Position numbers and translations under genes: made by a program. 64,000 bases of DNA from a virus (lineage: Duplodnaviria; Caudoviricetes): IMG/VR virus record IMGVR_UViG_3300021255_004000, positions 64,001 through 128,000 of that record. One strand, given 5' to 3'. The notes beneath the pieces were generated by a model. That model saw only the letters and a list, made by a program, of their open reading frames with translations. It was not told the DNA's origin and ran no database searches. This document shows, piece by piece, positions 4,967 to 40,023 of this stretch (positions within the stretch are counted from its first letter, which is position 1; every line of letters begins with the position of its first letter).

Positions 4967-5031
4967 ATTGATATATTAACTATAAAGGCAACCTTCATTA
5001 GGTTGCCTACTTTTTAATTCTGACTTTTTAA

Positions 5032-9160: not shown

Positions 9161-10549
9161 TTACTTTAACAGATTTTTAATGTTTGCAATCAGAATTGCC
9201 TTGTCAGTTTTTCCGTTGTTTACCTGATCTTTATGGGCAACTTCCAGAGCCTTGCGGAACTTTTCACTTGGCTTGAAACCTAAAGCAATCAGATCATCAC
9301 CAGTTACAATAGGTGCAGGAATTGGCTGACCAATTAAGCTTACAATTTTTGGAGAAGCCAGAGCTTCGTCTAAAGGCATTTCTTCATCGTCAGCAGCAGT
9401 TTTGATACAACCATCGCTGTCGCTTCTGCACAGCTCGCACAGTAAGTCGAAGTCAGGCAGATTCAGAATACTCATAATTGCAAACTTTTTATCCAGCAGG
9501 CCTAACTGATGCATCTTCATATGATTTGCAACTAAGCCTTCAACACGATGAGCTGTTGCACAATCTAATCTTAAGTCTCTCAGGAACTTGTAAGCAATAG
9601 GAGCACCAACTTCTGCGTGATCTTTAACTGCAGGGAAACCATTTTTGCTTAAGCCATTTTTGCGGCCTGAAGCAGGCTTTCCACAGTCGTGCAGAATTGC
9701 GCCCATTATGAAAACGAAACGGTCAATTTCATTTTCAATTTTAGGAGCACGAGCAACTGCAGCTTTTACAACCAGCATTGTGTGGTTGAAAACATTGCCT
9801 TCACTGTGCCATTTTGGGTTCTGCTCGCAAGTTTTCATATCTTCGAAAATCTCAGTTAAGTGAATTGCATCGAAGATTCCCATTCTTCTCATAATTTCAA
9901 AAACTTCCATTGTGAAGTCTTTACCGCCAAAAGTTTTGATTAACTCAGCACATTGTCTTTCAACAGAAACATCAGCAAAAACAACTTCAGGTGTTATTTT
10001 GTTGATGTGTGCCTCGATTGCAGCAACATCCTTTTCATTTGCCTTGAAGCCTTTTGAAGCAACAAAGCGAACATATCGGAAGATTCTTAAAGGATCTTCA
10101 GTGATGCGGTCAACTGCGTTTCCAACAAAACTTAATGTGTTTGATTTGATGTCAGCAATACCACAACCTGTTGGGTCGATAATGTTTCCATCTTTATCTT
10201 CGTACAAAGAGTTTACTGTAAAATCTCTGCGGAAAGCATCATCTTCAATTTTGTTTGAAAACTTGATTGTGGGATGGCGGCCTCTTGTCAGGTCAGAACG
10301 CCAAGTTGCAATTTCAACCTGTTCACCATTGATGATTGGCATTGCAACTCCGTACAAGTTTGCTTTTCTTGTTTCTGTAACACCAAAGATTTTGTTGATC
10401 TCATCAGGTGTTGCATTTGTTGAAATATCATAATCGTGAGGAGTTCTTCCAGTCAGTTCATCACGAACGCAACCGCCGACAAAGTAGGCCTTAAAACCAG
10501 CATTTTCAATAGGTGTAATAACTTTTTTGATAATTTCCTGCTTTGTCAA
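9161..10549 (-). CDS. cca: tRNA nucleotidyltransferase (CCA-adding enzyme) with HD domain
   Basis: VGGCVRD, DYDIST, DAFRRDFTVN, EDPLRIFR; HD motif LHDCGK. Confidence 0.9.
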   Translation of the reverse strand: MTKQEIIKKVITPIENAGFKAYFVGGCVRDELTGRTPHDYDISTNATPDEINKIFGVTETRKANLYGVAMPIINGEQVEIATWRSDLTRGRHPTIKFSNKIEDDAFRRDFTVNSLYEDKDGNIIDPTGCGIADIKSNTLSFVGNAVDRITEDPLRIFRYVRFVASKGFKANEKDVAAIEAHINKITPEVVFADVSVERQCAELIKTFGGKDFTMEVFEIMRRMGIFDAIHLTEIFEDMKTCEQNPKWHSEGNVFNHTMLVVKAAVARAPKIENEIDRFVFIMGAILHDCGKPASGRKNGLSKNGFPAVKDHAEVGAPIAYKFLRDLRLDCATAHRVEGLVANHMKMHQLGLLDKKFAIMSILNLPDFDLLCELCRSDSDGCIKTAADDEEMPLDEALASPKIVSLIGQPIPAPIVTGDDLIALGFKPSEKFRKALEVAHKDQVNNGKTDKAILIANIKNLLK

Positions 10550-10571
10550 TTTGAACCTCCGTTACAAAAAT

Positions 10572-10600
10572 AATATAAAAGACTTGCACGGAAAGTTCAA
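10572..10600 (-). promoter_or_regulatory. sigma70-like early promoter (TTGAAC-N17-TATATT)
   Basis: one of ten copies with the same 17-nt spacer: 10572, 18936, 21048, 27799, 31595, 35749, 39570, 42720, 53998, 59896. Confidence 0.8.
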
Positions 10601-11169
10601 ATATTATGCAAAAGTGGATGATTCTTTTTATAGTCGAACTTCAAGCCGTCCTTTACAATTTTGACGATTTCATCGTAGCCTTTTTCATTACCATCAACGA
10701 CAACAAATGGGATTTTATTGGATTCGAGAAACTTGGATGTTTTTCCATCTATCTCTTTAGCTTCGCCTTCAGTTTGATTTCTTCCGTTAGGATTATATGG
10801 CTTCACACGATTGATGACGAAGTTGAAGTTGAAACGATGATACTTTTCAAACTCTTCAAGAGATGCAGCTTTCAACATTGGCTGATCTTCTCTTGCGTAC
10901 AATGCACCAAGAGCAATAGGGCTATCAGTGATAATTACATCGACTTTGCCAAAGCAGCGGCTTATTTTGAAAGACTGCTTTCCTGTAATGTAAAATTGAT
11001 TTTTGAAAACTTCAGAGTTGTTTTCCCAAACTTTATCTTTTGCAAACTCAGAAACATATTCACAGTCAATACCTGCAAGTTTGAGTTTTGCAAAAACATA
11101 AGCGGCGCCTGTAGATTTTCCTGCGCCTGGGCCAGCGAAAAGATTTACAATAATTGTGTTTTTATCCAT
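10597..11169 (-). CDS. P-loop NTPase/kinase (NadR-like AAA family)
   Basis: GPGAGKST; SEFAK; IITDSP; GRNQ. Confidence 0.8.
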   Translation of the reverse strand: MDKNTIIVNLFAGPGAGKSTGAAYVFAKLKLAGIDCEYVSEFAKDKVWENNSEVFKNQFYITGKQSFKISRCFGKVDVIITDSPIALGALYAREDQPMLKAASLEEFEKYHRFNFNFVINRVKPYNPNGRNQTEGEAKEIDGKTSKFLESNKIPFVVVDGNEKGYDEIVKIVKDGLKFDYKKNHPLLHNI

Positions 11170-11212
11170 AGTTGGATATTAACAAAAAAGGTTGCTAAAA
11201 AGCAACCAATTA

Positions 11213-11295
11213 CGGAACCTGCGTGAGTCGAACACGCTCAACCCGAAGGTTGTACAGCTTAGCAGGCTGCTGCATTACCGTCCTGCCCAGATTCC
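11213..11295 (-). tRNA. tRNA-Ser(GCT)
   Basis: cloverleaf, loop CT-GCT-AA, long variable arm, G73. Confidence 0.9.
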
Positions 11296-11304
11296 AAAAT
11301 ACTT

Positions 11305-11379
11305 TGTGAGTGGCAGGAGTCGAACCCGCCTTCATCTGATCCGTAGTCAGAGGCACCAATTCCGATATACCACACTCAC
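11305..11379 (-). tRNA. tRNA-Arg(ACG)
   Basis: TCTGA-CTACGGA-TCAGA, T-loop TTCGACT. Confidence 0.9.
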
Positions 11380-11388
11380 ATAAAATAT

Positions 11389-11504
11389 AGGCCTGTTGTA
11401 AATAGTGCAAGATTTTCAGTCTCGTGTGTCACCGTTTCACCTCATCAGGAAACCCTGATGGTGGGAGTCGAACCCACTTACGATAATAGGAACAACTTTT
11501 GCCT
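11389..11504 (-). ncRNA. carrier-stem RNA copy 1 with circularly permuted tRNA-Phe(GAA) module
   Basis: GGCAAAAGTTGTTCCTATT...TACAACAGGCC ends; internal order is T arm, loop-closed acceptor stem, D arm, CGAGA-CTGAAAA-TCTTG. Confidence 0.75.
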
Positions 11505-11510
11505 TATGAA

Positions 11511-11584
11511 AGCATCATATCGGATTCGAACCGACCCCTACTGCTTGGAGGGCAGTCGTGCTGAGCCGCTAACACTAATGATGC
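11511..11584 (-). tRNA. tRNA-Gly(TCC), C33 variant
   Basis: G1-C72, C2-G71, U73; loop CC-TCC-AA. Confidence 0.85.
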
Positions 11585-11597
11585 ATATTAAAGTTTT

Positions 11598-11671
11598 TGG
11601 GACCTCGAGGATTTGAACCCCGCACCCAGACATTATGAGTGTCGCGCTCTGACCCAATGAGCTAAGATCCC
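11598..11671 (-). tRNA. tRNA-CAT, probably Ile2 (lysidine type)
   Basis: loop CT-CAT-AA; GGG-starting acceptor and A73 resemble Ile2. Confidence 0.8.
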
Positions 11672-11675
11672 ATAA

Positions 11676-12050
11676 AGATTACACAGTACTAAGAATCTGT
11701 ATCGAACGTCGTACTCGGCGGGATCCTTTTCACTGATGAAGTTGAGTGGCTACTGTGTATCACCATTGATATGACCTGCCGTGGGACACGGGCTTCATCA
11801 TCCTTTGAGCAGCAGTTTTGAGTGACGAGTTCAAAACTTTATTGCCTCTAAGTGCCGCAGGTTCTGTCAGTTGTTTGAGAAGGACAGCGTATGTTAGACG
11901 CTTCCTTAATTATTGTACACTTGGTACAACAATCTCTCGTGTTTCCCTTGTCTTTCAAATCAGGCGCAAGTAAGAAACAAAGCGTTATGGAACCACACAT
12001 AATTCACATCATTTGTTGAACTCATAACCCTAGAAATGCCAAAATCCCTA
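11676..12050 (-). ncRNA. unidentified structured RNA(s)
   Basis: no ORF; several helices (TACACAGTA/TACTGTGTA, GTTTTGA/TCAAAAC, ACCTGC/GCAGGT). Confidence 0.45.
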
Positions 12051-12074
12051 TGTTTTTATATTAACATATTCAAG

Positions 12075-12147
12075 TCAGCCACCTGGGATTTGAACCCAGA
12101 ACCTAAGGATTAAGAGTCCCTCGCGCTAACCGTTGCGCCAGTGGCCG
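12075..12147 (-). tRNA. tRNA-Lys(CTT)
   Basis: AGGGA-CTCTTAA-TCCTT. Confidence 0.9.
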
Positions 12148-12152
12148 ATAAG

Positions 12153-12223
12153 TGAGCGATACGGGAGTTGAACCCGTCTCAGCAGATTAAAAGTCTGCGG
12201 CAAAACCGATTTGCTAATCGCCC
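12153..12223 (-). tRNA. tRNA-Lys(TTT)
   Basis: GCAGA-CTTTTAA-TCTGC. Confidence 0.9.
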
Positions 12224-12233
12224 GTAAATTGTT

Positions 12234-12306
12234 TGAGCTTGATGGGAATCGAACCCACGACCCACAGATTAAAAGTCTGTTGCTCTACCTATTGAGCTAC
12301 AAGCCC
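12234..12306 (-). tRNA. tRNA-Lys(TTT)
   Basis: ACAGA-CTTTTAA-TCTGT, canonical D and T arms. Confidence 0.92.
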
Positions 12307-12324
12307 ATAAGATACTCAAACAAT

Positions 12325-12387
12325 TTAACAGGCTTTGTCTAAGGCAGCAATTACTGCTGCCACTTCCGCATTTCCTCTCATAATCAT
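12325..12387 (-). CDS. 20-aa mini-ORF MIMRGNAEVAAVIAALDKAC
   Basis: strong AAGGAG RBS 6 nt before ATG, lying between tRNA-Cys and tRNA-Lys. Confidence 0.5.
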   Translation of the reverse strand: MIMRGNAEVAAVIAALDKAC

Positions 12388-12400
12388 AATTTACTCCTTG

Positions 12401-12473
12401 AGATGAGGATGGGACTCGAACCCACCTGTAACAGTTTTGCAGACTGCTGCCTCACCAATTTGGCTACCTCATC
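12401..12473 (-). tRNA. tRNA-Cys(GCA)
   Basis: GCAGT-CTGCAAA-ACTGT, U73. Confidence 0.9.
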
Positions 12474-12484
12474 ATAATTTTATT

Positions 12485-12556
12485 TACCGCGTGAAGGAGT
12501 TGAACCTTCCTAAGCCGTCTTGTAAGGGCGGTGCACAACCGATGTACCAACGCGGT
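12485..12556 (-). tRNA. tRNA-Val(TAC)
   Basis: loop CT-TAC-AA, A73. Confidence 0.85.
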
Positions 12557-12566
12557 ATAAAGTTGA

Positions 12567-12649
12567 CGGAAGCGACAGGAATCGAACCTGCGACCTTTTT
12601 AGGGGAGACTGTTTTCAAGACAGTTTGATGCGCCAACCAACTCGCTTCC
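12567..12649 (-). tRNA. tRNA-Ser(TGA)
   Basis: ACTGT-CTTGAAA-ACAGT, variable arm, G73. Confidence 0.85.
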
Positions 12650-12657
12650 AAATGTAG

Positions 12658-12730
12658 GGTGCCCATCGGGATTCGAACCCGACCCTGAAGATCCACAATC
12701 TGCCGTGCTAACCGCTAACACTATGGGTAC
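12658..12730 (-). tRNA. tRNA-His(GTG)
   Basis: loop TT-GTG-GA, C73; genomic -1 base is T, not G. Confidence 0.85.
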
Positions 12731-12732
12731 AT

Positions 12733-12805
12733 TGCTGAAGGCAGGATTCGGACCTGCTACATCTGCCTTATGAGGGCAGCGTTCAACCGTATGAACTTCT
12801 TCAAC
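12733..12805 (-). tRNA. tRNA-Met(CAT), elongator-like
   Basis: CTGCC-CTCATAA-GGCAG; T-loop TCCGAAT. Confidence 0.8.
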
Positions 12806-12812
12806 ATAATAG

Positions 12813-12883
12813 CCCAAACTCAGGGATTTGAACCCCGGCTAGATGATCTTCAGTCACCTGTGCTACCGCTACACCAAGTTTGG
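12813..12883 (-). tRNA. tRNA-Phe(GAA), atypical body
   Basis: GGTGA-CTGAAGA-TCATC; G37 and G73. Confidence 0.75.
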
Positions 12884-12888
12884 ATATC

Positions 12889-12962
12889 TGTGGCATCGGG
12901 GATTCGAACCCCGAAAATTTGCGTTCTTAGCGCAACAAGTATGCCAGTTCCATCAATGCCAC
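12889..12962 (-). tRNA. tRNA-Leu(AAG), short variable loop
   Basis: TTGCG-CTAAGAA-CGCAA; Leu-type D arm. Confidence 0.8.
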
Positions 12963-13570
12963 AAAAGTGTATTAGTTCGTTCATCGTATCTAATAAAGAT
13001 ACAATGAAGTCTACTTTTAATGTAGTCCTCTCTGGCTTTATCTTTCATCTTTCCTTTAACAGAATTGTGATAGCCTTTCTTTTCATCATATTCAAAAGCA
13101 ATGTTCAATTCTTTGTCATAGCCATCAAGGTGATATGGTCCAACACAAACTTCTCCGCCATTCATAGCGTGTTGTAAATGCCAACCATATTTTGCGTTCA
13201 GCTCATCAATGAACTTACAAGCATTTTCATTATAATTGCAATAGTTACCAAGATTGTGTCTTTTCCGCATCATCTCAGCAAGTTTTGCTCTTGTTTCAGG
13301 CGTATGAGTGTGGCCTTTCTTAATCTCACGATTAGGATTCAGTCCACAGTATCTCATATGTTGTGTTTTTGACTCCTTATTATTGAAGATTCTTCCGCAA
13401 AAGTCACAAAAACAAGTTTCTTTTCTATGAAGAGACCTTCCCAAGGAGTCAAGTCCTTGTTCTAATCTTTTTTCACAAGTTTTCTTATGTTCAAAATAGT
13501 TTCTTCTACCTTGAACAACACAACCACAATATTCACATTTCCAATTTTGAGCGTTTTTGTATGTTTTCAT
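12953..13570 (-). CDS. free-standing homing endonuclease (Zn fingers + NUMOD3 + PD-(D/E)XK-like domain)
   Basis: CxxC repeats, HTPETRAKL, YHLDGYD...AFEYDE. Confidence 0.75.
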   Translation of the reverse strand: MKTYKNAQNWKCEYCGCVVQGRRNYFEHKKTCEKRLEQGLDSLGRSLHRKETCFCDFCGRIFNNKESKTQHMRYCGLNPNREIKKGHTHTPETRAKLAEMMRKRHNLGNYCNYNENACKFIDELNAKYGWHLQHAMNGGEVCVGPYHLDGYDKELNIAFEYDEKKGYHNSVKGKMKDKAREDYIKSRLHCIFIRYDERTNTLLWH

Positions 13571-13622
13571 ATCAATTAGTAAAGATTGGAAGACACACTT
13601 AACATCTCAAACCCATATTAAC

Positions 13623-13650
13623 AAAAAAGGCAACTCCTAAGAGCCGCCTT
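13623..13650 (-). terminator. attenuator C terminator
   Basis: AAGGCGGCTC-TTAG-GAGTTGCCTT followed by T tract; 5' strand shared with the antiterminator at 13646-13689. Confidence 0.8.
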
Positions 13651-13682
13651 GAAAGATTTGTAAACTGTTTCTGCTTACAACT

Positions 13683-13811
13683 TCAAGGCTCTAATACGAA
13701 ATGTTTTCCAAAGAGAGAACGAAGGACCATCTTCGAACACATACCGCATCCCAATACGAAACTAACAAATGAGGAATGTTTAACTATGTTCGACATCTTT
13801 GAAAAATTCAT
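13683..13811 (-). CDS. leader peptide C (42 aa) MNFSKMSNIVKHSSFVSFVLGCGMCSKMVLRSLFGKHFVLEP
   Basis: AAGGA RBS; stop TGA lies in the antiterminator strand GCCTTGAA. Confidence 0.75.
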   Translation of the reverse strand: MNFSKMSNIVKHSSFVSFVLGCGMCSKMVLRSLFGKHFVLEP

Positions 13812-13893
13812 ATTCGTCAATCCTTAGCTATCAGGTTGCTACCCAAAATGTTTTTTCTTATTGAATAGTTAGTAAACAATTCAATAAAGTAAG

Positions 13894-13966
13894 TGGACCT
13901 ACCGAGCATCGAACTCGGACCTCAGGATTGCAGATCCCGTATGCCAGCCATTAACACCTTAAGCCC
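13894..13966 (-). tRNA. tRNA-Ala(TGC), C33 variant
   Basis: G3.U70; loop TC-TGC-AA. Confidence 0.85.
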
Positions 13967-13973
13967 ATAAAAA

Positions 13974-14090
13974 TCTTCTGTTTATCCGCGAAGGTTGTTA
14001 CCAACTCTTCTTTCCTCTTGGAGGAACTGCTTTGTTTATTCTCCCGCTCCCGCATAACGCGTCGGTGTTGCGTTAGGAATTCACAGAAGA
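13974..14090 (-). ncRNA. unidentified closed-stem RNA
   Basis: ends pair TCTTCTGT/ACAGAAGA; internal hairpins; flanked by tRNAs. Confidence 0.45.
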
Positions 14091-14094
14091 TTAG

Positions 14095-14167
14095 TGGACC
14101 GTAGGGGAGTCGAACCCCTCTTTCCAGCGTGCAAAGCTGGAGTACTAAGCCGATATACGAACAGCCC
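14095..14167 (-). tRNA. tRNA-Ala(TGC)
   Basis: G3.U70; CCAGC-TTTGCAC-GCTGG. Confidence 0.9.
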
Positions 14168-14174
14168 AAAATTA

Positions 14175-14260
14175 AAAGCGGGTTGTAAAAATTTCGCCGC
14201 AATGACGAAATATTGGAGTCGAACCAATAATTTCCGTTTAATAGGAACAACCTTTGCTTT
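14175..14260 (-). ncRNA. carrier-stem RNA copy 2 with T arm + closed acceptor-like helix
   Basis: AGCAAAGGTTGTTCCTATT...TACAACCCGCT; TATTGG-TTCGACT-CCAATA. Confidence 0.7.
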
Positions 14261-14261
14261 A

Positions 14262-14333
14262 TTCCTCTGCTAGGATTCGAACCCAGAACAACTGATCCAG
14301 AGTCAGCAGTGTTACCAATTACACCACAGAGAA
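14262..14333 (-). tRNA. tRNA-Gln(CTG)
   Basis: U1-A72; GCTGA-CTCTGGA-TCAGT. Confidence 0.9.
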
Positions 14334-14334
14334 G

Positions 14335-14406
14335 TCGGACGAGAAGGAGTTGAACCTTCGAAATCTCGGTCCCAGGCCGAGTGACATACCGCTTGCCGAC
14401 CGTCCG
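14335..14406 (-). tRNA. tRNA-Pro(TGG), C33 variant
   Basis: C1-G72, A73; CTCGG-CCTGGGA-CCGAG. Confidence 0.85.
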
Positions 14407-14414
14407 AAAATGAA

Positions 14415-14486
14415 AGCACCTGAAGGGAGTTGAACCCTCGCCTCAGCCTTGGCAAGGCCGCGTACTAGCCGTTATACTACAAGTAC
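14415..14486 (-). tRNA. tRNA-Gly(GCC)
   Basis: loop TT-GCC-AA, U73. Confidence 0.88.
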
Positions 14487-14494
14487 ATAAAATA

Positions 14495-14571
14495 TTGGGG
14501 TGGGTGGAATTGAACCACCGTGTAACCAACTAACCTTTCTGCGGTTTATCAGACCGAGGGTATACACCCCA
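14495..14571 (-). tRNA. rearranged tRNA-Ile(GAT)-like RNA lacking a canonical D arm
   Basis: 7-bp acceptor, CGGT-CTGATAA-ACCG, T arm; D-loop-like AGTTGGT lies 3' of the anticodon arm. Confidence 0.6.
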
Positions 14572-14587
14572 TTGTGTTTCAAGTTTT

Positions 14588-14660
14588 CAGGTGCGGAGAG
14601 ATTCGAACTCCCACCGACGGACTTGGAAACCGTAATGCTAAACCTTTACACCACGCACCT
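14588..14660 (-). tRNA. tRNA-Trp(CCA)
   Basis: A1-U72, G73; loop TT-CCA-AG. Confidence 0.85.
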
Positions 14661-14663
14661 ATA

Positions 14664-14695
14664 AATCATTAAAGGCTCAACTTTTAGTTGAGCCT
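14664..14695 (-). terminator. attenuator B terminator
   Basis: AGGCTCAAC-TAAAA-GTTGAGCCT plus an interrupted T tract; overlaps the antiterminator at 14689-14721. Confidence 0.7.
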
Positions 14696-14718
14696 GTAAA
14701 ATCCAAATTTTACTAGGC

Positions 14719-14853
14719 TCACTTGATCTGCCACTGTCCTGAAATTGGGGCAATAGCTGCAACTGGTGCAAAGCCGGCGAAAGAAACTGGAAGACTAATG
14801 TGGCCGGCAAGTTTTACTGACTTAACTGATTTACAAACCATCATTGCTTTCAT
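14719..14853 (-). CDS. leader peptide B (44 aa) MKAMMVCKSVKSVKLAGHISLPVSFAGFAPVAAIAPISGQWQIK
   Basis: AGGAGAAAGGA RBS; stop TGA begins the antiterminator strand TGAGCCT. Confidence 0.8.
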   Translation of the reverse strand: MKAMMVCKSVKSVKLAGHISLPVSFAGFAPVAAIAPISGQWQIK

Positions 14854-14958
14854 ATTGTCCTTTCTCCTATAATTTTATATTAACAACTTTTCAGAAGTTT
14901 CTGAAAAATTATTTTCAATATTTAGTTAGTACAGTTGCAAAAACTGTAAGAGTTTTAA

Positions 14959-15040
14959 TCGGCCAGGAGAGACTCGAACTCTCAATCCACACGGCGTCCG
15001 ACCTTAATTCGGATGTGTATACCAATTCCACCACTGACCG
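14959..15040 (-). tRNA. tRNA-Leu(TAA)
   Basis: TCCGA-ATTAAGG-TCGGA, variable arm. Confidence 0.85.
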
Positions 15041-15047
15041 AACAAAA

Positions 15048-15230
15048 TTAACTATCCTTTAAGTATGCAACAGTTTTTCCATTTTCAAACATTTCTTGTT
15101 GAAGTTTGGAAATCTTGTTGTAAAGATCTTGGCAAATGCCTTTTGATCTTCCACTTAAATGGAAGCGTGCCATATGTCCTAGCACGAATGCAAGTTCTTG
15201 CAATCTCTCGTTATCGAGTTTGATTGTCAT
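15048..15230 (-). CDS. small hypothetical protein (MTIKLDNERL...)
   Basis: AAGGAG RBS before ATG at 15230. Confidence 0.55.
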   Translation of the reverse strand: MTIKLDNERLQELAFVLGHMARFHLSGRSKGICQDLYNKISKLQQEMFENGKTVAYLKDS

Positions 15231-15275
15231 ATAGACTCCTTGCACCACCAATTTTTTAATGAAATTGGAAACATT

Positions 15276-15342
15276 GGCGAGCTGTAGCAAATATACATTA
15301 ACAGTGTATTGCCTCATCGGCGTAATAGGAACAACTTATGCC
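15276..15342 (-). ncRNA. carrier-stem RNA copy 3 with tRNA-Asn(GTT) anticodon arm
   Basis: GGCATAAGTTGTTCCTATT...TACAGCTCGCC; ATACA-CTGTTAA-TGTAT. Confidence 0.7.
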
Positions 15343-15351
15343 TAACATGTG

Positions 15352-15433
15352 TGGCCGCAGGAAGTTTTGCCATCTCTTCGTCCCCCGACTTACAAGGTCG
15401 GTGCTCTTAGGGCAGTCTGAGCTACATTTGGCC
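15352..15433 (-). tRNA. atypical tRNA-Thr(TGT) with degenerate T arm
   Basis: D stem GCTC/GAGC; CCGAC-CTTGTAA-GTCGG; no TTCRA loop. Confidence 0.55.
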
Positions 15434-15751
15434 TTTGCTGCATCATAAAAAGACAACGCAGCGAAATCCGAAGTTTTTCTTTCAGTTGCCACAACCAAGT
15501 ATTTTTCAACCCACGTCTCATTAAGACAACCTACACTGGAGCTTTTGGTAAAACTTTCTACCCATATTCATCATACGGTAACCATTGTAAAGGCCTTTAT
15601 GCTTGTTCCGCCAGGCTCCCCGCTGACCAAGCTGATGTCTCGGTAATTTTTCATACCAGCCTCACCTTGGGCTCATACTTCCTTTCCCCAAGTACTCTTA
15701 GGTTTTCACGCGACCTAAACTATCCCACGAGTTTGAAAGAGTTTGCTTTCT

Positions 15752-16054
15752 CTAGTAATAACACCACCATTTGATACGACAAGTTTCACTGTCGAAGCAT
15801 TCAGTAAGAATGTTATCAATTTCCTCTTCCGTTGTATCAATATTAACAGATTTCAGTCTGCTTCTGATAAGTCCACGAGAATCTTTTTTCTTCTCGGAAC
15901 GGTCTCCTTTCATCGCACGGCGAGCGTAACGATCACAAGGATTTCCCCAACGGAACCAGAATCTTCGAGCTTCCTGTGTACCGCGTCTTGCGGTATATTC
16001 ACCGTAGCTGAAGTTTGCCTTATAAAAGGCGCTCTCGCAATAATCATTTAACAT
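15752..16054 (-). CDS. hypothetical basic protein
   Basis: AGGAG RBS; 100-aa ORF. Confidence 0.5.
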   Translation of the reverse strand: MLNDYCESAFYKANFSYGEYTARRGTQEARRFWFRWGNPCDRYARRAMKGDRSEKKKDSRGLIRSRLKSVNIDTTEEEIDNILTECFDSETCRIKWWCYY

Positions 16055-16251
16055 CTAGTGTATCTCCTACACTATCCGTAAGTCATACGCGATCCTCCTA
16101 TTATAGCATCATCGTTCACAGGATCGAACTGCAACCGTACAGACCTTTAGAGCCTATCCGTTTTACCCCACACAGGGCGATGTTGCTTATGGTTGAACGA
16201 GATGGCAACAACATTACTTGTACACCAACGTCATCTGCTATAAAACTAAGA

Positions 16252-16333
16252 TGGGCCAAAGGAGAGTCGAACTCCTAATCCTTTCGGCGACTGCTTTTGA
16301 GGCAGTTGCGTATACCAGTTCCGCCATTAGCCC
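16252..16333 (-). tRNA. tRNA-Leu(CAA)
   Basis: ACTGC-CTCAAAA-GCAGT, variable arm. Confidence 0.9.
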
Positions 16334-16339
16334 AAATGA

Positions 16340-16412
16340 TTGCGGGAGGTGGACTCGAACCACCGACCTTCGGGTTATGGGCCCGATAAGCTGCCAACTG
16401 CTCTATCCCGCG
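16340..16412 (-). tRNA. initiator tRNA-fMet(CAT), C33 variant
   Basis: C1xA72 mismatch, three G-C pairs in the anticodon stem, loop CC-CAT-AA. Confidence 0.9.
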
Positions 16413-16427
16413 ATGTAACATGTGTTT

Positions 16428-16503
16428 TGACGCTGACAGGACTCGAACCTGCGACACCGAGCTTAGAAGGCTCGTGTTCTTATTCCAGCTGAACTACAGC
16501 GCC
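16428..16503 (-). tRNA. tRNA-Arg(TCT)
   Basis: CGAGC-CTTCTAA-GCTCG. Confidence 0.9.
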
Positions 16504-16685
16504 ATATTGAAAGTACTTTATACGTCGGACCAGTCCGTTCAGCTTTCGCCTAGGGAGTTTCGAGGCTCCCACCTACGCATATCAACTTTCTGTGTGCTTT
16601 TCGGGCTTCTTCTACTAAGCACTTAAACTTTCAGTTCTGCTAGAAACCAAAGTTCTTGACGTTCTCTCTAGCAATGAGAACCGTA

Positions 16686-16760
16686 TAGCTGTTGCAGGAG
16701 TCGAACCTGCTATCGTAAAGGATATGAGCCTCACATATTGAACCGTTCTACCCAACAGCG
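16686..16760 (-). tRNA. tRNA-Met(CAT), unpaired 1:72
   Basis: loop CT-CAT-AT; C1xU72. Confidence 0.7.
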
Positions 16761-16768
16761 ACGTACAA

Positions 16769-16890
16769 AAAGACGAGTTGTATTATTCGTGCTCTAACCG
16801 CTGAGCTATCCGCCCACGAACGAGCGGAGTTGGATTCGAACCAACGACCCCGTGCTTAAAAGGCAACAAATAGGAACAACTTATGTCTTT
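16769..16890 (-). ncRNA. carrier-stem RNA copy 4 with circularly permuted tRNA-Lys(TTT)
   Basis: GACATAAGTTGTTCCTATT...TACAACTCGTC; order is anticodon loop CTTTTAA, T arm, loop-closed acceptor TCCGCTC/GGGCGGA, D arm. Confidence 0.8.
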
Positions 16891-16893
16891 TAG

Positions 16894-16966
16894 CGGTGTA
16901 TGCGGGAATCGAACCCGCCATCTCCTGCGTGACAGGCAGGCGAAATAGCCGATATTCAAATACACC
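16894..16966 (-). tRNA. tRNA-Asp(GTC)
   Basis: CCTGC-CTGTCAC-GCAGG, G73. Confidence 0.9.
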
Positions 16967-17175
16967 AAATAAACAAACCACCTTCCAAACGGAACGCCCG
17001 ATACTTGATCTTAATGTCCGCACTTATCCAAGAGTTTCATTTCGCGCGAGAAACTCTCGGGGGTTAGGGAGCTACAGGTGCCTAGGCTTACTACGATTAA
17101 GCCAACAAATGCGAGCTCGTCTCACAAAGGTTTGTACTTTTTGCCAACTTCTGTCTAGAATGAAGTTGAAAGTAG

Positions 17176-17263
17176 TGGGCCGAGAGGGAGTCGAACCCCC
17201 GATGTTTGCCGTAAAGGTGACGGATTTACAGTCCGCTGACTTCGCCACTGGTCACACCGACCC
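17176..17263 (-). tRNA. tRNA-Tyr(GTA)
   Basis: GCGGA-CTGTAAA-TCCGT, long variable arm. Confidence 0.9.
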
Positions 17264-17329
17264 ATAAAATTGATGGCCGTGCTCATCACACATTTACAAC
17301 ATCGTTTCGAGCAATGTTACCATCAAGTA

Positions 17330-17402
17330 AGCTACTTGTAGGACTTGAACCCACAACATCCTGATTACAGGTCAGGCGCTCTACCATTGGAGCTAAAGTA
17401 GC
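17330..17402 (-). tRNA. tRNA-Thr(TGT), C33 variant
   Basis: CCTGA-CCTGTAA-TCAGG. Confidence 0.88.
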
Positions 17403-17558
17403 ACAATAAAAGATAAATTACATTTTTTCTTTCCATACATCTTTCATTCTAATTTGTCCGCGGTCACTGAACGAAGAAGATGGTTGTATTAGATGTTCTA
17501 TAACTTTTCGGGGCCTTAAGCCCGTATTGAGTGTTTCAACATCAGTCTCTTATCTTTA

Positions 17559-17631
17559 AGCCGCCTGAGGGATTTGAACCCACAACATCCGCATTACAGG
17601 TGCGGCGCTCTACCATTGGAGCTAAGGAGGC
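17559..17631 (-). tRNA. tRNA-Thr(TGT), C33 variant
   Basis: CCGCA-CCTGTAA-TGCGG. Confidence 0.88.
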
Positions 17632-17634
17632 ATA

Positions 17635-17706
17635 CAGTTCCGAAAGGAGTCGAACCTTCGTTCTCTGGATGAAAACCAGATGGCCTAGCCGTTAGCCGAC
17701 GGAACC
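17635..17706 (-). tRNA. tRNA-Glu(TTC)
   Basis: TCTGG-TTTTCAT-CCAGA. Confidence 0.88.
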
Positions 17707-17787
17707 AAAAACTGTGAACTACTTCTAAGACTGGACGGAAGTATAGCAGCTCGTTCAAAAGATATATTGACTTTCAAACTTTTGTCT

Positions 17788-17872
17788 CGTATCAGGCAGG
17801 GCTCGAACCTGCGATGGGCTTTCGCTCGGCAGATTAACAGTCTGCTGTCTTCGACCACTCGACCACTGATAC
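17788..17872 (-). tRNA. tRNA-Asn(GTT) with long variable arm
   Basis: GCAGA-CTGTTAA-TCTGC, G73. Confidence 0.85.
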
Positions 17873-17879
17873 ATATTTA

Positions 17880-18431
17880 TTATGTTAAAAAGATTTTTAC
17901 TTCTTCTATAAAGATTTTAGGATTATTGAAAATATCTTTCCAAGATTTTCTCAATTCTTTCCATCCTTCTTCATTCAGAAGTTTATCTTTCTGAACATCT
18001 CTTTCTTTTTGCTCTTGAAATCTTTCGTGTTGTTCACCATCAATTTCAACGCAAAGTTTTTTGTCAGGCCAAGCAAAGTCCAAAGAAAACCTATGAAAAG
18101 GAACTTCTCTGTAATAATCTTTATCAATTTCTTGACCAAATTCATTTCTCATCATTGTAATAAACCACTCCTCAGGATATGAAGGTTTATTATTCCAACG
18201 ACAATCTCCAATGTTATGAGCTCGACCTTCAGCGTGAGCTTTTTTCATCGAAGCAGAAATCTTTTGTCTAACATCATCCGACATTGTATGTCCGCAATGA
18301 TCCTTCAACTTCTGTCTTGTTTCTTCTGACAAAACAGGTTTTTCTTTTCCAAGAGCTTTAGCCTTAGTATATTGATTTGTACCGTGGCCTTTTCTTGCGT
18401 GCATTGCATCGTACCATTTTTGACTTTTCAT
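17880..18431 (-). CDS. free-standing homing endonuclease (NUMOD3 + DUF559/Vsr-like domain)
   Basis: SEETRQKL/SDDVRQKIS repeats; FSLDFAW..LCVEIDGEQH...RD..KD. Confidence 0.8.
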   Translation of the reverse strand: MKSQKWYDAMHARKGHGTNQYTKAKALGKEKPVLSEETRQKLKDHCGHTMSDDVRQKISASMKKAHAEGRAHNIGDCRWNNKPSYPEEWFITMMRNEFGQEIDKDYYREVPFHRFSLDFAWPDKKLCVEIDGEQHERFQEQKERDVQKDKLLNEEGWKELRKSWKDIFNNPKIFIEEVKIFLT

Positions 18432-18519
18432 ATCAATTAGTACGGTCCTCCGCTCTACATGTGTCCCTATCGTCGGAACCTATTGTCAACATCTTATCGT
18501 CGGTCCCTATTGTCGGTAG

Positions 18520-18593
18520 CGGGATATGCGAGCATCGAACTCGCGACCTCTAGCGTGACAGGCTAGCGTGGTAGCCAACTCCACCAATACCCC
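18520..18593 (-). tRNA. tRNA-Asp(GTC)
   Basis: CTAGC-CTGTCAC-GCTAG. Confidence 0.88.
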
Positions 18594-18807
18594 AAAATTG
18601 TAGGTATAAGAAACCTTTTGCAAGGAAAGGAATTACCCGTATGCCTTTTACCAGCCAACAACTTGTTCAGTAGTTCCATTTCTGTTATCTGACCAATAGT
18701 GTTTCTACTGGCTCTGACAAGTTATCAACCAAGGATTCGAACCTTCCACCGAACGATACCACGAGGTGGCAGCAACCAAGCTGTTATTTTATTCCGTTTA
18801 ACGTTCT

Positions 18808-18880
18808 TAGATCTTGCGGGGATCGAACCCACTCCTCCACCTTGAAAGGGTGGCGACTCAACCTTTTTGTCCTAAGATCC
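18808..18880 (-). tRNA. tRNA-Glu(TTC)
   Basis: CCACC-CTTTCAA-GGTGG. Confidence 0.88.
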
Positions 18881-18999
18881 ATATTTGAAGTTTCCTTCTT
18901 TTGTTGTAAACCTTTTGTATCGGTTTTACAGAAATAATATAAAAGAAGTTTTTTCAAAGTTCAAAAATTTTTATTTTTTTGCAATTTTTGTTATAAAAC

Positions 19000-19028
19000 A
19001 AAAAAGGCAAACCTTCATCGGTTTGCCT
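19000..19028 (-). terminator. attenuator A terminator
   Basis: AGGCAAACC-GATGAA-GGTTTGCCT followed by T tract; overlaps the antiterminator at 19023-19059. Confidence 0.8.
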
Positions 19029-19050
19029 CAGGGAAACATTTCTCAGTTCT

Positions 19051-19173
19051 CTAAGGCAACCTTGTATCTTCATTATAATCGTATTCATCTGTAGTGATAG
19101 CAGTTCTAACATCATTATTCAATAATGATCTTGTTGTGAGAACTTCTGCTGTCAATGAATACAATGAAGTCAT
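19051..19173 (-). CDS. leader peptide A (40 aa) MTSLYSLTAEVLTTRSLLNNDVRTAITTDEYDYNEDTRLP
   Basis: AAGGAAGG RBS; stop TAG lies in the antiterminator strand TTGCCTTAG. Confidence 0.78.
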   Translation of the reverse strand: MTSLYSLTAEVLTTRSLLNNDVRTAITTDEYDYNEDTRLP

Positions 19174-19267
19174 TTTTAATAGCCCTTCCTTAATATATTT
19201 CAATTAGTACAACCCTTAAAAATGTAAGAGTTGTAATTTGTTCCTCGTATATTTATATTAACAGATT

Positions 19268-19867
19268 TTAGTCTTCTGCTGTAGGAATTTCAATTCCAAA
19301 CAGTTTTGATAACTTATCTTTCCAATTAAGGAAATCATCGTTATGGCCGCCATCTGCATAATAAGTTACACCGTCATAAATCTTATCATAATTTGATAAG
19401 AAAGCTTTACAGAACTCTTCGTTCTCAGGATCGCCATCGCTGGCAGTATCATAAAGCTCGTCAATAAGTGTATCAAGCTTCTCAATGCAGTTTGCTGCTG
19501 CTTCATAGTTTGTCCAAACTCTTGAGAGAATTTGGAATAAACTTATCAACTTCATAAACTTATGCTTCAAAGCATCTGTTTTGATTACATCATACATATC
19601 AGAAAGTTCGCCGCCTACAATAACTGGGACGCCATTCAATCTTTCAAATGCGTGACATAATTCGTGTGCAACATATTTAGGCAAGTCCTCTTTGGAAACT
19701 TTTTTCCAAACAGAAATACTCTTTTCTGAAATGTTGTACTTTGCTTTCATTCCTGTGTAGTCAAAGTCGACAACATTTATAGAAACACTTGGACACGGAA
19801 TACCTGCATCCTCAAGCTTATCAAGCAAATTGTCTAAACACGCCTGTGCATCTTCTTGTTTAATCAT
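19268..19867 (-). CDS. HExxH metallopeptidase-like protein
   Basis: VAHELCHAFE. Confidence 0.65.
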   Translation of the reverse strand: MIKQEDAQACLDNLLDKLEDAGIPCPSVSINVVDFDYTGMKAKYNISEKSISVWKKVSKEDLPKYVAHELCHAFERLNGVPVIVGGELSDMYDVIKTDALKHKFMKLISLFQILSRVWTNYEAAANCIEKLDTLIDELYDTASDGDPENEEFCKAFLSNYDKIYDGVTYYADGGHNDDFLNWKDKLSKLFGIEIPTAED

Positions 19868-20035
19868 AAACGGTACTCCTAATATTTAGTTATAGGAGAA
19901 AGAGTTCTCGCCGGTTTTAATTTCTCAAACTACAGCCCCGCTACCTGCATTCGATTTTTGCAAGCCATACGAGTAGCATCACTGCTGCGAGGTTGATGGG
20001 ACTTTCACCCATAGTGACGTTTAACGAACTCCTAA

Positions 20036-20124
20036 TTCGGAAGGCGGGATTCGAACCTGCACGACGCTGATATGCGTCACCAGAATCAAAGTCTGGGGAG
20101 ATACCAATTACTCTTTACTTCCGA
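20036..20124 (-). tRNA. tRNA-Gln(TTG) with long variable arm
   Basis: CCAGA-CTTTGAT-TCTGG; GACGC-ATATCA-GCGTC arm. Confidence 0.7.
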
Positions 20125-20130
20125 GTAAAA

Positions 20131-20700
20131 TAGTTTTCTCACTCTTGTTTGCAACGCGACGCAAGATTCCAATAGGTGGACATATCCGATATTCCTATTA
20201 TACGGAAGGCCCTTAAGCGCATCTACTGCCGCGAGAAAACTATAGGTGAACCAAGGACTTGAACCTTGCCGTTACTCCAGCCTTGCGAGCTTCACGGATC
20301 CAACAGTGTCCACCATCATTATAAGTGCAGTCGGGAATTGAACCCGCTCTCAGCTGGCGTGATCCGCGTGGGACGAAGCCGTGCCTTTTTCCTTCATCGC
20401 ACTTAACAAGCCTTACGGATTGCTCCTGCTTGTAATGGAGTCTTAGAGGTTTGACTGCCAACCTTTAGAACATAGAGGATTCGAACCTCAGTTTCTGAGC
20501 ATACTACACTCAGCGTTCTAGACCCTGCCCTACTTTGCTGTGCACTGCTTTTTCGAGCTTTCGAACTAATGTTCTCCTTTGACGGTATCAACTTCATCCT
20601 GCGTCGTCATATACAGGCCTTTACCATCCGGTGCTTCCAGCGGTTGAGTATAACTCCTCATATTTCCCGTTCTCTGTGTAGCCATCTACGTTGAAGTTGT
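20131..20700 (-). ncRNA. run of tRNA-like and closed-stem RNAs (20131-20242, 20244-20314, 20324-20403, 20467-20574)
   Basis: three units have an acceptor stem and a TTCRA T arm but non-canonical D/anticodon regions; 20131-20242 is a closed stem. Confidence 0.5.
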
Positions 20701-20706
20701 CAAATA

Positions 20707-20779
20707 TAGTTCCTACGGGGCTTGAACCCATTTTTCGAGCTTGAGAGGCTCGCGAATTAGCCAGTTATTCGAAGGAACC
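20707..20779 (-). tRNA. tRNA-Glu(CTC)
   Basis: CGAGC-CTCTCAA-GCTCG. Confidence 0.85.
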
Positions 20780-20784
20780 AAAAA

Positions 20785-21015
20785 TTACATCTCAGGAATA
20801 AGCGTGCCATCTTTTAACCAAGCTTTTGGAGTAAAGTTTGGCATAGGCTGTAATGTTTCAAAAGACCACCAAGCATTATCATTTTTATCCCAAAGACCAT
20901 AACCAATGCCTTTTGAACCATCACTGTTAAAACCTACAAGAAGAACGACACCTTGATCTTTCCCTGCTTCCAAGTCAAAATTCCAAGTTGCTTCAACTGT
21001 TACTGTCTTTGCCAT
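20785..21015 (-). CDS. hypothetical protein
   Basis: AGGAGG RBS; downstream of early promoter 21048-21076. Confidence 0.65.
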   Translation of the reverse strand: MAKTVTVEATWNFDLEAGKDQGVVLLVGFNSDGSKGIGYGLWDKNDNAWWSFETLQPMPNFTPKAWLKDGTLIPEM

Positions 21016-21149
21016 ACTCGCCTCCTTGTTTGCGTTTTGACAATAATAATATAAAAGAATGTTTGAAAAAGTTCAAAAATTCTTAAATATTTTTCAAAAA
21101 AAAATACCTGCAGCAACAGCCACAGGTATTATATTAACACTTTAGGCTA

Positions 21150-22337
21150 TTACTGTTGAACCTGCTGTTGAGCTTGCTCCAAAGCTAAGTTTGGATTTTC
21201 CTGAGCAACCTGAATTGCCTGAGCAACAACATCAGGATTGATATTTGCACCAAGCTGATTTCCATATCTTTTATAGAAATTAAGAGCTGCACCAACATTC
21301 TTACAGCGAATTGCTGCTGCTGCGAGAATCATATTCTCGACTCCATTATGATTTTGGAAGAACTGTGGAAGATCATTTCGAAGTCCCTGCTCGCCCTGTG
21401 CATTTGCCTGACCTAAGAACTTGGAAATATAATTTACCAATTCTTTAGCTCCTGCATCAGTACCATCAAAATTGTTAAGTTGCTTTACGATTGCATTTGC
21501 AGTCATATTAGCAGAAGCTTCGTTCATTTGAATAAGACTTTCAAAGAAGTTGGTTTTCTCATCTTTAGCAGGTTTAGCAGCTTCAAGGATTTCATTAAAC
21601 AAACTTTCTTTGAAGCCAAGCTTCTGAAGAATTGAAGATTTTGCTTGTGGCTGCGCAGCAGTTGGCATTACAGTTCCAGTGTTGTTATCAACAACCTGAG
21701 CATTCTTGTTCATTGACATATCAGGCTTTTCAGGAGACCAATCCTGCATTGCTGCTTTTTCTTTTGCTGGAGCAGCAGCGTAAGCTTTCTGAAACTTGTC
21801 AACACGAGCAGCTGCGGCAGGAGACATTGAGTTCTTTGCTGCAACTGGGTTAGCCCAAGCAGTTTTATCAGGTCCCATAGGAACGCCTACATAAACACCT
21901 GTTTTATCAACTTCTGCCTGTCCTCTTCCGTTAGGCCCTGGTGTTATATCACGAATGCCTTTGTTAGCAAGATCACCAGCAAGAGCGCGGCCTGATGCTT
22001 CGCCGTTTGCATACTGCATTGTTCCGCCAATCTGTGCTTCACGAATGTTTACTGACCAGTTCTTTTCGATTTTTGGAAGTATTCCTCTTACCCATCTCAT
22101 CAAACTGTTAAACTGTTCAGGATTTTCTGTTGGATGTTCTTCATCAATCTTTCCTGCGATGTATTCAACAATTCCTATATCTGGGTCATTTACGCCTGCG
22201 TCAACATCTTCGCAATATCTGCCATACCAAAAGTCAACATCAGCTTCAAGACCATCATAAGAATCAAAAAAGTTTCCTTCGCGGAAAGTATCATATGCAT
22301 ATCCTCTGTTAAGGAGGTCCTCAATCATCTTTTCCAT
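21150..22337 (-). CDS. hypothetical protein (possible virion protein)
   Basis: 395-aa ORF preceded by the TACTAAT motif. Confidence 0.7.
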   Translation of the reverse strand: MEKMIEDLLNRGYAYDTFREGNFFDSYDGLEADVDFWYGRYCEDVDAGVNDPDIGIVEYIAGKIDEEHPTENPEQFNSLMRWVRGILPKIEKNWSVNIREAQIGGTMQYANGEASGRALAGDLANKGIRDITPGPNGRGQAEVDKTGVYVGVPMGPDKTAWANPVAAKNSMSPAAAARVDKFQKAYAAAPAKEKAAMQDWSPEKPDMSMNKNAQVVDNNTGTVMPTAAQPQAKSSILQKLGFKESLFNEILEAAKPAKDEKTNFFESLIQMNEASANMTANAIVKQLNNFDGTDAGAKELVNYISKFLGQANAQGEQGLRNDLPQFFQNHNGVENMILAAAAIRCKNVGAALNFYKRYGNQLGANINPDVVAQAIQVAQENPNLALEQAQQQVQQ

Positions 22338-39743: not shown

Positions 39744-39948
39744 ATAACATGCGCGGAAATTGCTTATTCGCAAGTATTCCATTTCCGCAAAAAGTTGAAA
39801 ACTGTAGGGTCTTACTAAAACTTGCGACCTAATCTGCTTTCAACTAGGGATACACCGTTTGTCCTCGTCGTTATCACGAGAGCACGAGGAATCCTCCACC
39901 ATCAATTTTTGAAAGAAATTGAAAACTTTTGCATTGTAAAACGCATAG

Positions 39949-40023
39949 AACTTCAAGTAGGATTTGAACCCACATCACCGCCAATCACCCGGCAGTATGC
40001 TTACCAAGTTACACCATTGAAGT
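39949..40023 (-). tRNA. tRNA-like RNA with non-canonical 8-nt anticodon loop (GGGTGATT)
   Basis: intact acceptor, D and T arms. Confidence 0.6.

Follow-up and report, generated by a model that had tools for sequence, protein, structure and literature searches.

The 64,000-nucleotide stretch analysed here (the window; positions 64,001 to 128,000 of the IMG/VR virus record IMGVR_UViG_3300021255_004000, Caudoviricetes) carries a tRNA gene array that includes a short open reading frame (ORF), leader C, followed by overlapping RNA hairpins and by the last block of tRNA genes. The DNA is AT-rich (GC about 0.38), the minus strand holds almost all of the genes, and 35 tRNA genes lie within 20780-11212; a transfer-messenger RNA (tmRNA), a CCA-adding enzyme and an Rnl1-type RNA ligase are also encoded. 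The window belongs to an uncultured giant phage of animal guts, since near-identical DNA is present in animal gut metagenomes, including bovine and sheep ones, and its chaperonin is only 34% identical to the best match among GenBank phages. The genomes of relatives reach 295-363 kb. The array was divided into three blocks at three leader-terminator units, with leaders A, B and C ahead of blocks 1, 2 and 3, respectively (Table 1). Block 3 consists of genes for tRNA-Leu (AAG), Phe, Met (CAT), His, Ser (TGA), Val, Cys, Lys (three genes), a CAT tRNA that is a candidate for Ile2, Gly (TCC), Arg (ACG) and Ser (GCT), and is closed by a terminator at 11207-11190.

Relatives of the phage were reached by way of the CCA enzyme, a neighbouring P-loop kinase and a profile of leader B. 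Four related lineages were compared with the window: L013, whose kinase is 95% identical; L096/L097, also close; L095, of intermediate relation; and L001/L002/L093, represented by a 295-kb phage whose CCA enzyme is 75% identical.

All sequence statements on leader C were verified on the minus strand. Upstream of it lies a tRNA-Ala gene that ends at 13893. The ORF described in the original prediction exists, with an ATG start and a Shine-Dalgarno sequence, and is kept in frame in the related phages. Its Shine-Dalgarno sequence (AAGGA) differs from the GGAGG-type sites of other genes in the window, and the 28 nucleotides around it are identical in the window, L013, L096 and L095. The predicted antiterminator with an inner 8-bp helix, overlapping the terminator, was confirmed by RNAfold: an outer helix of 9 bp (13689-13681/13654-13646) and an inner helix of 8 bp (13680-13673/13665-13658) make up 17 bp in total, and the stop codon sits within GCCTTGAAG (13689-13681), for which 13654-13646 is the partner strand. 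The terminator has a 10-bp stem (13650-13641/13636-13627), the loop TTAG and then a T run. The last five nucleotides of the 3' strand of the antiterminator, AAGGC, are the first five of the terminator stem.

Table 1. Coordinates of the leader units, the RNA elements of leader C, the tRNA blocks and the inserted ORF in the window.
Feature	Position	Strand	Description
Leader unit A (L1)	18995-19262	minus	GTTAATAT 19262-19255, hairpin and TACTAA, Shine-Dalgarno, ORF 19173-19051, terminator 19029-19004
Leader unit B (L2)	14660-14884	minus	GTTAATAT 14884-14877, Shine-Dalgarno, ORF 14853-14719, antiterminator strand, terminator, then tRNA-Trp
Hairpin ahead of leader C	13857-13889	minus	TACTAA (13874-13869) in loop; directly after tRNA-Ala
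Shine-Dalgarno AAGGA	13821-13825	minus	9 nt ahead of ATG
Leader ORF C (L3)	13683-13811	minus	42 codons and TGA; ATG 13811-13809, TGA 13685-13683
Antiterminator hairpin of leader C	13646-13689	minus	RNAfold; stop codon 13685-13683 in 5' strand
Intrinsic terminator of leader C	13621-13650	minus	10-bp stem, loop TTAG, T run
GTTAATAT promoter-like motif	13615-13622	minus	directly after leader C terminator
205-codon ORF	12953-13570	minus	618 nt, Cys-rich, homing-endonuclease-like by context; between GTTAATAT motif and tRNA-Leu of block 3
tRNA block 1	18881-14958	minus	behind leader A
tRNA block 2	14661-13893	minus	behind leader B; includes tRNA-like Ile-GAT
tRNA block 3	11212-12963	minus	behind leader C; 14 tRNA genes

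The composition of leader C was compared with the tRNA genes behind it. As the original prediction held, residues 9-40 are limited to amino acids that have tRNAs in block 3: only F, S, K, M, V, H, L, G, C and R are used, with a single I (codon ATA). Residues 3-7 are also within the set, and the residues outside it are N2, N8, E41 and P42 only. Thirty-seven of 41 residues therefore belong to the block-3 set, compared with a background share of 0.548 (binomial p 1e-6), a match that was reached by none of 11,041 control segments of 41 residues (segments of the same length taken from 55 long ORFs of the window). Leader A has 30 of 39 residues in the block-1 set, as many as in 4 of 11,151 control segments. 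Leader B, which has no D, E, N, T or Y, has all 43 of its residues in the union of the sets of blocks 2 and 3. When the twenty amino-acid labels were shuffled, with leader composition and block sizes kept, the observed joint total was reached in 2 of 200,000 permutations if each leader was compared with its own block, and in none of 200,000 if it was compared with all downstream blocks. Because the blocks are partly sorted by the second base of the codon, and hence by hydrophobicity, a second permutation was run in which labels could be exchanged only between amino acids of the same second-base class (four classes); of 30,000 permutations each, 0 attained the observed total for the window, 3-5 for L095 and 2-4 for L001.

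The choice among synonymous codons was also compared with the blocks. Leu and Arg codons match the own downstream block of their leader in 13 of 16 cases in the window, compared with 7.5 expected from the codon usage of the phage (p 0.005), and in 15 of 19 cases in L001 (p 0.005); there is no such signal in L095. The codons that had been listed for leader C (GGA, CGT, CTT/CTC, GTA, AAA/AAG, TCA/TCG/AGT and ATA) are all present, but the list omitted TTG, TTA, GGT, GTT, GTC, TCC and TCT, of which GTT (used twice), GTC, TCC and TCT need relaxed wobble by the single Val or Ser tRNA.

Leaders A and B each lie directly behind a copy of the GTTAATAT motif, with no copy between the terminator and the tRNA block, and thus occupy the classical position of an attenuator. 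The antiterminator strand of leader B, TGAGCCT, contains the stop codon, and its terminator is formed by AGGCTCAA/TTGAGCCT. A hairpin with TACTAA after it or in its loop stands ahead of each leader in the window (19235-19204, 14950-14926 and 13889-13857) and also in L013, L095 and L093, and the stem of the one ahead of leader A carries a compensatory change between the window and L013. As a word, TACTAA is not enriched in the window, only its position beside the pre-leader hairpins being notable. The hairpin may serve in processing, in termination by a different polymerase or as a promoter of a second type.

A strict scan found 16 terminators on the minus strand of the window. Among these, only the terminators of leaders A and C, and a dubious one located within a gene, have an upstream complement of 8-9 nucleotides to the 5' arm. 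When the upstream sequence was shuffled, such a complement arose in 2 of 300 cases for leader A and, for the 9-nucleotide complement of leader C, in 9 of 300. The terminator of leader B has a poor T run in the window and was missed by the strict scan; its T run in L001 is good. The region of leader C folds with z-scores of -2.65 (86-nt core) and -3.86 (296 nt). The presence of a ribosome was mimicked in 13 leader versions by holding 14 nucleotides from the stop codon onward unpaired, and the full terminator was then the best fold in 12 of the 13, including all four versions of leader C tested; the segment extracted for L083, a more distant relative, ended before the 3' arm of the terminator. 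Without this mask, the antiterminator clearly displaces the terminator in about 7 of the 13 versions. The two structures clearly exclude each other in L001 and in several of the leader A and leader B versions. In the window's own leader C, where they overlap by AAGGC only, the antiterminator was calculated at -23.2 and the terminator at -22.4 kcal/mol (0.8 apart), with equilibrium pairing of the terminator base at 0.14-0.43. As the two folds are nearly equal in energy, a switch at leader C of the window would be partial, or kinetic and governed by which structure folds first. A 'protector' helix, formed by long-range pairing between the conserved 5' region and the terminator, was considered and set aside as unsupported.

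The anatomy, the statistics and the conservation of the units were established from sequence and comparison. All four related lineages have leaders A, B and C, with Shine-Dalgarno sequence, ATG and stop codon placed relative to the hairpins as in the window, and the insertions and deletions within leaders A and B are all multiples of three. Leader C of L095 differs from that of the window by 10 amino-acid replacements and 5 synonymous changes, with 9 of the 10 replacements inside the block-3 set; the peptide sequence is thus under little constraint, while its composition is kept. Leader C of L001 has 47 codons and is 42% identical; its outer, inner and terminator helices differ in sequence from those of the window, yet they are arranged alike, with the last codons again inside the 5' strand. 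Leader B of L095 carries a C-to-T change in the strand common to both hairpins. The terminator compensates for this change (C-G to U-A), and the antiterminator, in which the TGA codon fixes the partner base, tolerates it as G-U. In L095, block 1 and not block 3 contains the genes for tRNA-Gly (TCC) and tRNA-Cys (L095 7781-9902, compared with the blocks of the window); leader A of this lineage has an additional Gly and an additional Cys, and its leader C is down from three Gly to one but retains two Cys. These shifts may represent co-variation of leader and block content, in a single case.

If the ORF of leader C were untranslated, the region would be only a structured 3' end or a signal for tRNA precursor processing. 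The folding z-score of -3.86 over 296 nt and the location between tRNA genes, where processing signals are expected, would fit this explanation. Nevertheless it appears very improbable, given that frame, start, Shine-Dalgarno sequence and stop position are kept in all lineages, that indels come in multiples of three and that the composition signal is found in this frame only.

Leaders A and C both end in CCT and a stop codon, as had been pointed out. This ending is kept in leader A in four lineages and in leader C of the window, L013, L096 and L095, but Pro-stop is not a general feature of the leaders: leader C of L001 ends in PES and a stop codon, and leader B and the leaders of distant relatives end otherwise. 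Slow termination at Pro-stop, which the original prediction had proposed as a means of holding the ribosome on the antiterminator strand, is possible. It is not needed, because CCT belongs to the GCCTT strand that is complementary to AAGGC, so that a constraint on the RNA explains it equally.

Leaders were sought at the tRNA clusters of more distant phages, as the original prediction had suggested. In L083, L087 and L110, with kinases about 58% identical, an unrelated leader of 30-31 codons stands directly ahead of the first tRNA gene of the array; its last codons and stop codon lie in a strand complementary to a terminator's 5' arm, and its composition matches the array (permutation p 0.0004-0.01). 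The P-loop kinase gene inside the tRNA array appears to be split into short frames in L083 (6502-7046) and L087 (9962-10541), which may reflect a frameshift, an insertion or an assembly error. The small Glu-Arg-Cys tRNA clusters of L023, L028 and L038 have no leader, and no tRNA array was found near the distant CCA-enzyme homologues P0012, P0015 and P0040. In public phage collections the search for close relatives of the window gave only short matches to Lak phages and to a tRNA, and a search of IMG/VR with the CCA enzyme gave nothing. Exact leader patterns gave no match in IMG/VR, or one chance match without tRNA genes. A word-based protein search with leader C returned the L001 copy only.

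Leader C could instead be an ordinary small protein gene, encoding a hydrophobic, basic peptide of 42 residues, at the end of an operon, with a plain terminator and an additional hairpin behind it; its agreement with the tRNA genes would then be a by-product of biased composition. Short ORFs are common in the tRNA regions of phages, conservation of parts of the peptide extends to L001, and a hydrophobic peptide beside a block for NUN codons is not very unlikely by itself, the blocks being partly sorted by second base. However, p is still about 1e-4 or lower in three lineages when the permutations preserve the second-base classes, each of the three leaders matches its own block, and the choice of Leu and Arg codons tracks the block. 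Replacements are about as frequent as synonymous changes, yet remain inside the set; an unrelated leader of the same design occurs in another lineage; and the other terminators have no upstream complement. The leader peptides have no family match in Pfam. An ordinary gene for a small protein is therefore a doubtful explanation.

The GTTAATAT motif bears on how block 3 may be transcribed. It occurs in 21 copies in the window, compared with 2.1 expected, all of them on the minus (coding) strand (for example at 4980, 11183, 13622, 14884, 19262, 41139 and 61919). In seven cases the motif is exactly 6 nucleotides ahead of an ATG that has no Shine-Dalgarno sequence, which suggests leaderless mRNAs. 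It also precedes the tmRNA; in L013 and L096 it stands 6 nucleotides ahead of the first base of tRNA-Leu; and at four sites it lies directly behind the T run of a terminator. Judged by position only, it would be a promoter element with a transcription start about 7 nucleotides downstream, and is probably the main promoter element of the phage. Leader C itself has no copy upstream and is co-transcribed with block 2. The original prediction had considered that block 3 might be transcribed only from the motif at about 13615, regardless of the leader, and the finding that the motif directly follows the terminator in the window and in three of the four relatives comes close to that situation. Very probably block 3 has its own start, and therefore leader C can only modulate extra read-through from the middle operon. 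In L001, the motif after the leader C terminator is degenerate and no intact copy is present.

Contigs of four bovine or sheep gut metatranscriptome assemblies cover leader C, leader B and the tRNA blocks, and one of them runs from block 2 across the terminator into block 3 in a variant without the 205-codon ORF. These are assembled contigs, possibly derived from DNA, without transcript ends or levels; the alignments end at 13608-13611 only because the inserted ORF begins there.

In another explanation, the ORF is translated and matched to the tRNA genes but has an output other than read-through into block 3: the location of the ribosome might determine the efficiency with which the middle operon is terminated and thereby insulate it from the promoter that comes next, or the ORF might act on processing or stability of the precursor, or deliver stalled ribosomes to the tmRNA of the phage. 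A terminator followed by the promoter-like motif is an ordinary layout of operon boundaries, found also at 4980, 11183 and 61919; block 3 very probably has a start of its own; and the phage does carry a tmRNA. Leaders A and B, however, stand behind the motif and directly ahead of their tRNA blocks with no promoter between, L001 has no intact motif after its leader C terminator, and a stop codon inside the antiterminator strand is the geometry that control of read-through needs. An altered output of this kind is, on balance, unlikely, if less so than the other two alternatives.

We therefore favour, with a probability of roughly 0.6, the reading of the leader C region as a multivalent ribosome-mediated (leader-peptide) transcription attenuator, located at the end of the middle tRNA operon and ahead of the last tRNA block. 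A short ORF with a ribosome-binding site lies upstream of the regulated genes on the same strand; it is enriched in codons that report the end product of those genes; an intrinsic terminator stands between the two; and the stop codon is located inside strand 13689-13673, so that a ribosome completing the leader would mask the antiterminator strand. A defining feature of such attenuators, dependence of the regulated genes on read-through with no intervening promoter, is shown by leaders A and B and apparently also by the leader C of L001, but leader C of the window lacks it. A multivalent attenuator is the simplest account because a drifting ORF keeps the composition and codon choice of the tRNA genes behind it, because the stop codon is kept in the antiterminator strand while the terminator shares the other strand of the hairpin, and because the design recurs, with three examples in a single array and a further one, without sequence relation to them, in another lineage.

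In the proposed mechanism, a ribosome would trail the polymerase through leader C. If the block-3 codons were read quickly, the ribosome at the stop codon would cover the 5' strand, the terminator would fold and the transcript would end at about 13623. If any of the sampled aminoacyl-tRNAs were scarce, for instance after host shut-off or cleavage of tRNAs by anticodon nucleases of the host, the ribosome would stall further upstream and the hairpin would keep AAGGC, reducing the terminator to five weak pairs, and transcription would continue into block 3, adding to that from the GTTAATAT start behind the terminator. The supply of tRNAs would in this way feed back negatively on the transcription of tRNA genes. 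Leaders A and B would act likewise on their own blocks, with leader B sampling both of the blocks downstream of it. Translation of the leaders and the direction and size of the effect belong to this model, as does the role of GTTAATAT as a promoter.

The attenuator interpretation, first put forward in the original prediction, stands as regards composition, codon choice, frame and conserved layout, but several findings weigh against it. The GTTAATAT motif follows the leader C terminator in the window, L013, L096 and L095, so that block 3 could be transcribed without read-through, and in the window a 618-nucleotide ORF stands between the attenuator and block 3. The full-antiterminator and full-terminator states of leader C are nearly isoenergetic, with a 5-nucleotide overlap, and, given more upstream context, the best fold of leader C of the window retains a 9-bp terminator. 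Covariation counts come from 3-5 sequences and show no excess over shuffles. Some codons of leader C are cognate to tRNAs of other blocks (TTG and TTA to Leu tRNAs of the upstream block, and GGT to Gly-GCC of the middle block). The N-terminal MNF.KM.N.V and C-terminal KHFV of the peptide are retained even in L001, which would not be required of a pure sampler of codons. G001, G004 and G005, more distant giant relatives with 24-42 tRNA genes, were found by the strict terminator scan to be without such leaders, and they also lack the GTTAATAT motif. Finally, the model assumes that whichever polymerase transcribes the array would be coupled to ribosomes.

Multivalent attenuators are known from amino-acid operons of enterobacteria, as in the ilvGMEDA and thr leaders, and leader-peptide attenuation more generally from trpL, hisL, leuL and pheL. 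By analogy, the mechanism at leader C would be that of the trp, his, leu, thr and ilv leaders, and closest to the multivalent ilv and thr leaders. With these it has in common a short translated leader with a ribosome-binding site and regulatory codons for more than one amino acid; in both, a ribosome at or near the stop codon would mask the antiterminator strand and so lead to termination, and a stall upstream to read-through. Unlike the ilv and thr leaders, the phage units would control tRNA genes and not biosynthetic enzymes, and the phage leader samples about ten amino acids that mirror a tRNA block, whereas the known leaders have runs of one to three. Leader C also differs in its position inside a tRNA operon with a promoter-like motif behind it, and in that no clear 1:2 'protector' pairing was found; an untranslated leader should therefore give read-through rather than super-attenuation. 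None of the Rfam leader families (Trp, His, Leu, Thr, Phe and the like) was among 43 Rfam matches.

T-box riboswitches likewise sense the status of tRNAs and choose between terminator and antiterminator. They recognise uncharged tRNA by direct binding, with no ORF involved, and the genes under their control are synthetase and amino-acid genes, whereas the phage unit has a conserved translatable ORF, and the Rfam T-box model has no match in 10500-21500 at E values up to 1. A full-text literature search, with subscription journals mostly outside its reach, found leader-peptide attenuation only in amino-acid operons and none of tRNA genes in phages or bacteria. To our knowledge, known control of tRNA genes acts at promoters.

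Among the tRNA genes of the array, the CAT tRNA of block 3 deserves mention, since the original prediction had read it as Ile2 from the single ATA codon of leader C. This reading is plausible: leader C retains the ATA codon in every lineage, and the place of the CAT tRNA is taken in L001 by a tRNA-Ile (TAT), located between the Lys-CTT and Gly-TCC genes, but the support is by position only and the two tRNAs are unlike in sequence. Of the three CAT tRNAs in the window, the one at 16338 resembles the initiator by established identity rules, since the alignment shows it to have a C1-A72 mismatch and, at the foot of its anticodon stem, three G-C pairs. The tRNA-like Ile-GAT element of block 2 (14571-14495) scores 32.9 bits with Rfam and is called by ARAGORN in L013 and L095.

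The ORF inserted between the GTTAATAT motif and block 3 is missing from this site in L013, L096, L095 and L001. It has only sub-threshold matches in Pfam, a 155-nucleotide stretch is 70% identical to Lak megaphages, and similar ORFs occur elsewhere in the tRNA arrays of relatives. It behaves like a homing endonuclease gene. Such a gene in a phage tRNA region is segB of T4 (PMC2330249). Like leader C, the endonuclease ORFs of phage tRNA regions, to which kind the 205-codon ORF (13570-12953) belongs, are coding insertions between tRNA genes; they differ from it in being mobile, in having no link of composition to the neighbouring tRNAs and in having no switchable terminator.

Several other elements were noted in and around the array. 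A conserved non-coding element of about 90 nucleotides, starting AACGC...GCGTT, lies between two tRNA-Ala genes in the window (about 14075-13975) and directly upstream of leader C in L001 (7236-7320) and L095 (about 11060-11130); it has no match in Rfam and may be a small RNA or a remnant of a tRNA. A sub-threshold match to YrlA, a Y RNA-like RNA (32 bits, 16788-16852, minus strand), lies beside a tRNA-like element (16686-16760, minus strand) within the array, and L007, a relative of this group, has a weak TROVE/Ro-like match. About 20 kb from the array are a tRNA-like gene for which a four-base anticodon (gtga) is called (39948-40023, minus strand) and the tmRNA of the phage (40737-41114, minus strand).

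The reason why phages have tRNA genes, and the way in which these are regulated, continue to be debated. With about even odds, giant phages carry an undescribed class of device, 'codon-sampling' leader attenuators, in which each tRNA block stands behind a mini-ORF written in the amino acids of that block, so that the phage gauges decoding speed and tops up whichever set of tRNAs is short; the units would be chainable, leader B sampling two blocks and leader C the last. Because the units are small and portable, they can be tested with reporters although the phage is uncultured. If the interpretation is true, the correspondence of leader composition to tRNA block content would be a signature for the annotation of phage tRNA operons, one that predicts functional unusual tRNA genes (such as the CAT tRNA read as Ile2 or a D-armless Ile tRNA) and that would be useful for synthetic sensors of tRNA pools. 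There would then be direct feedback from decoding speed to tRNA supply in these phages, and the logic of trp and ilv attenuation would be extended to a new class of targets.

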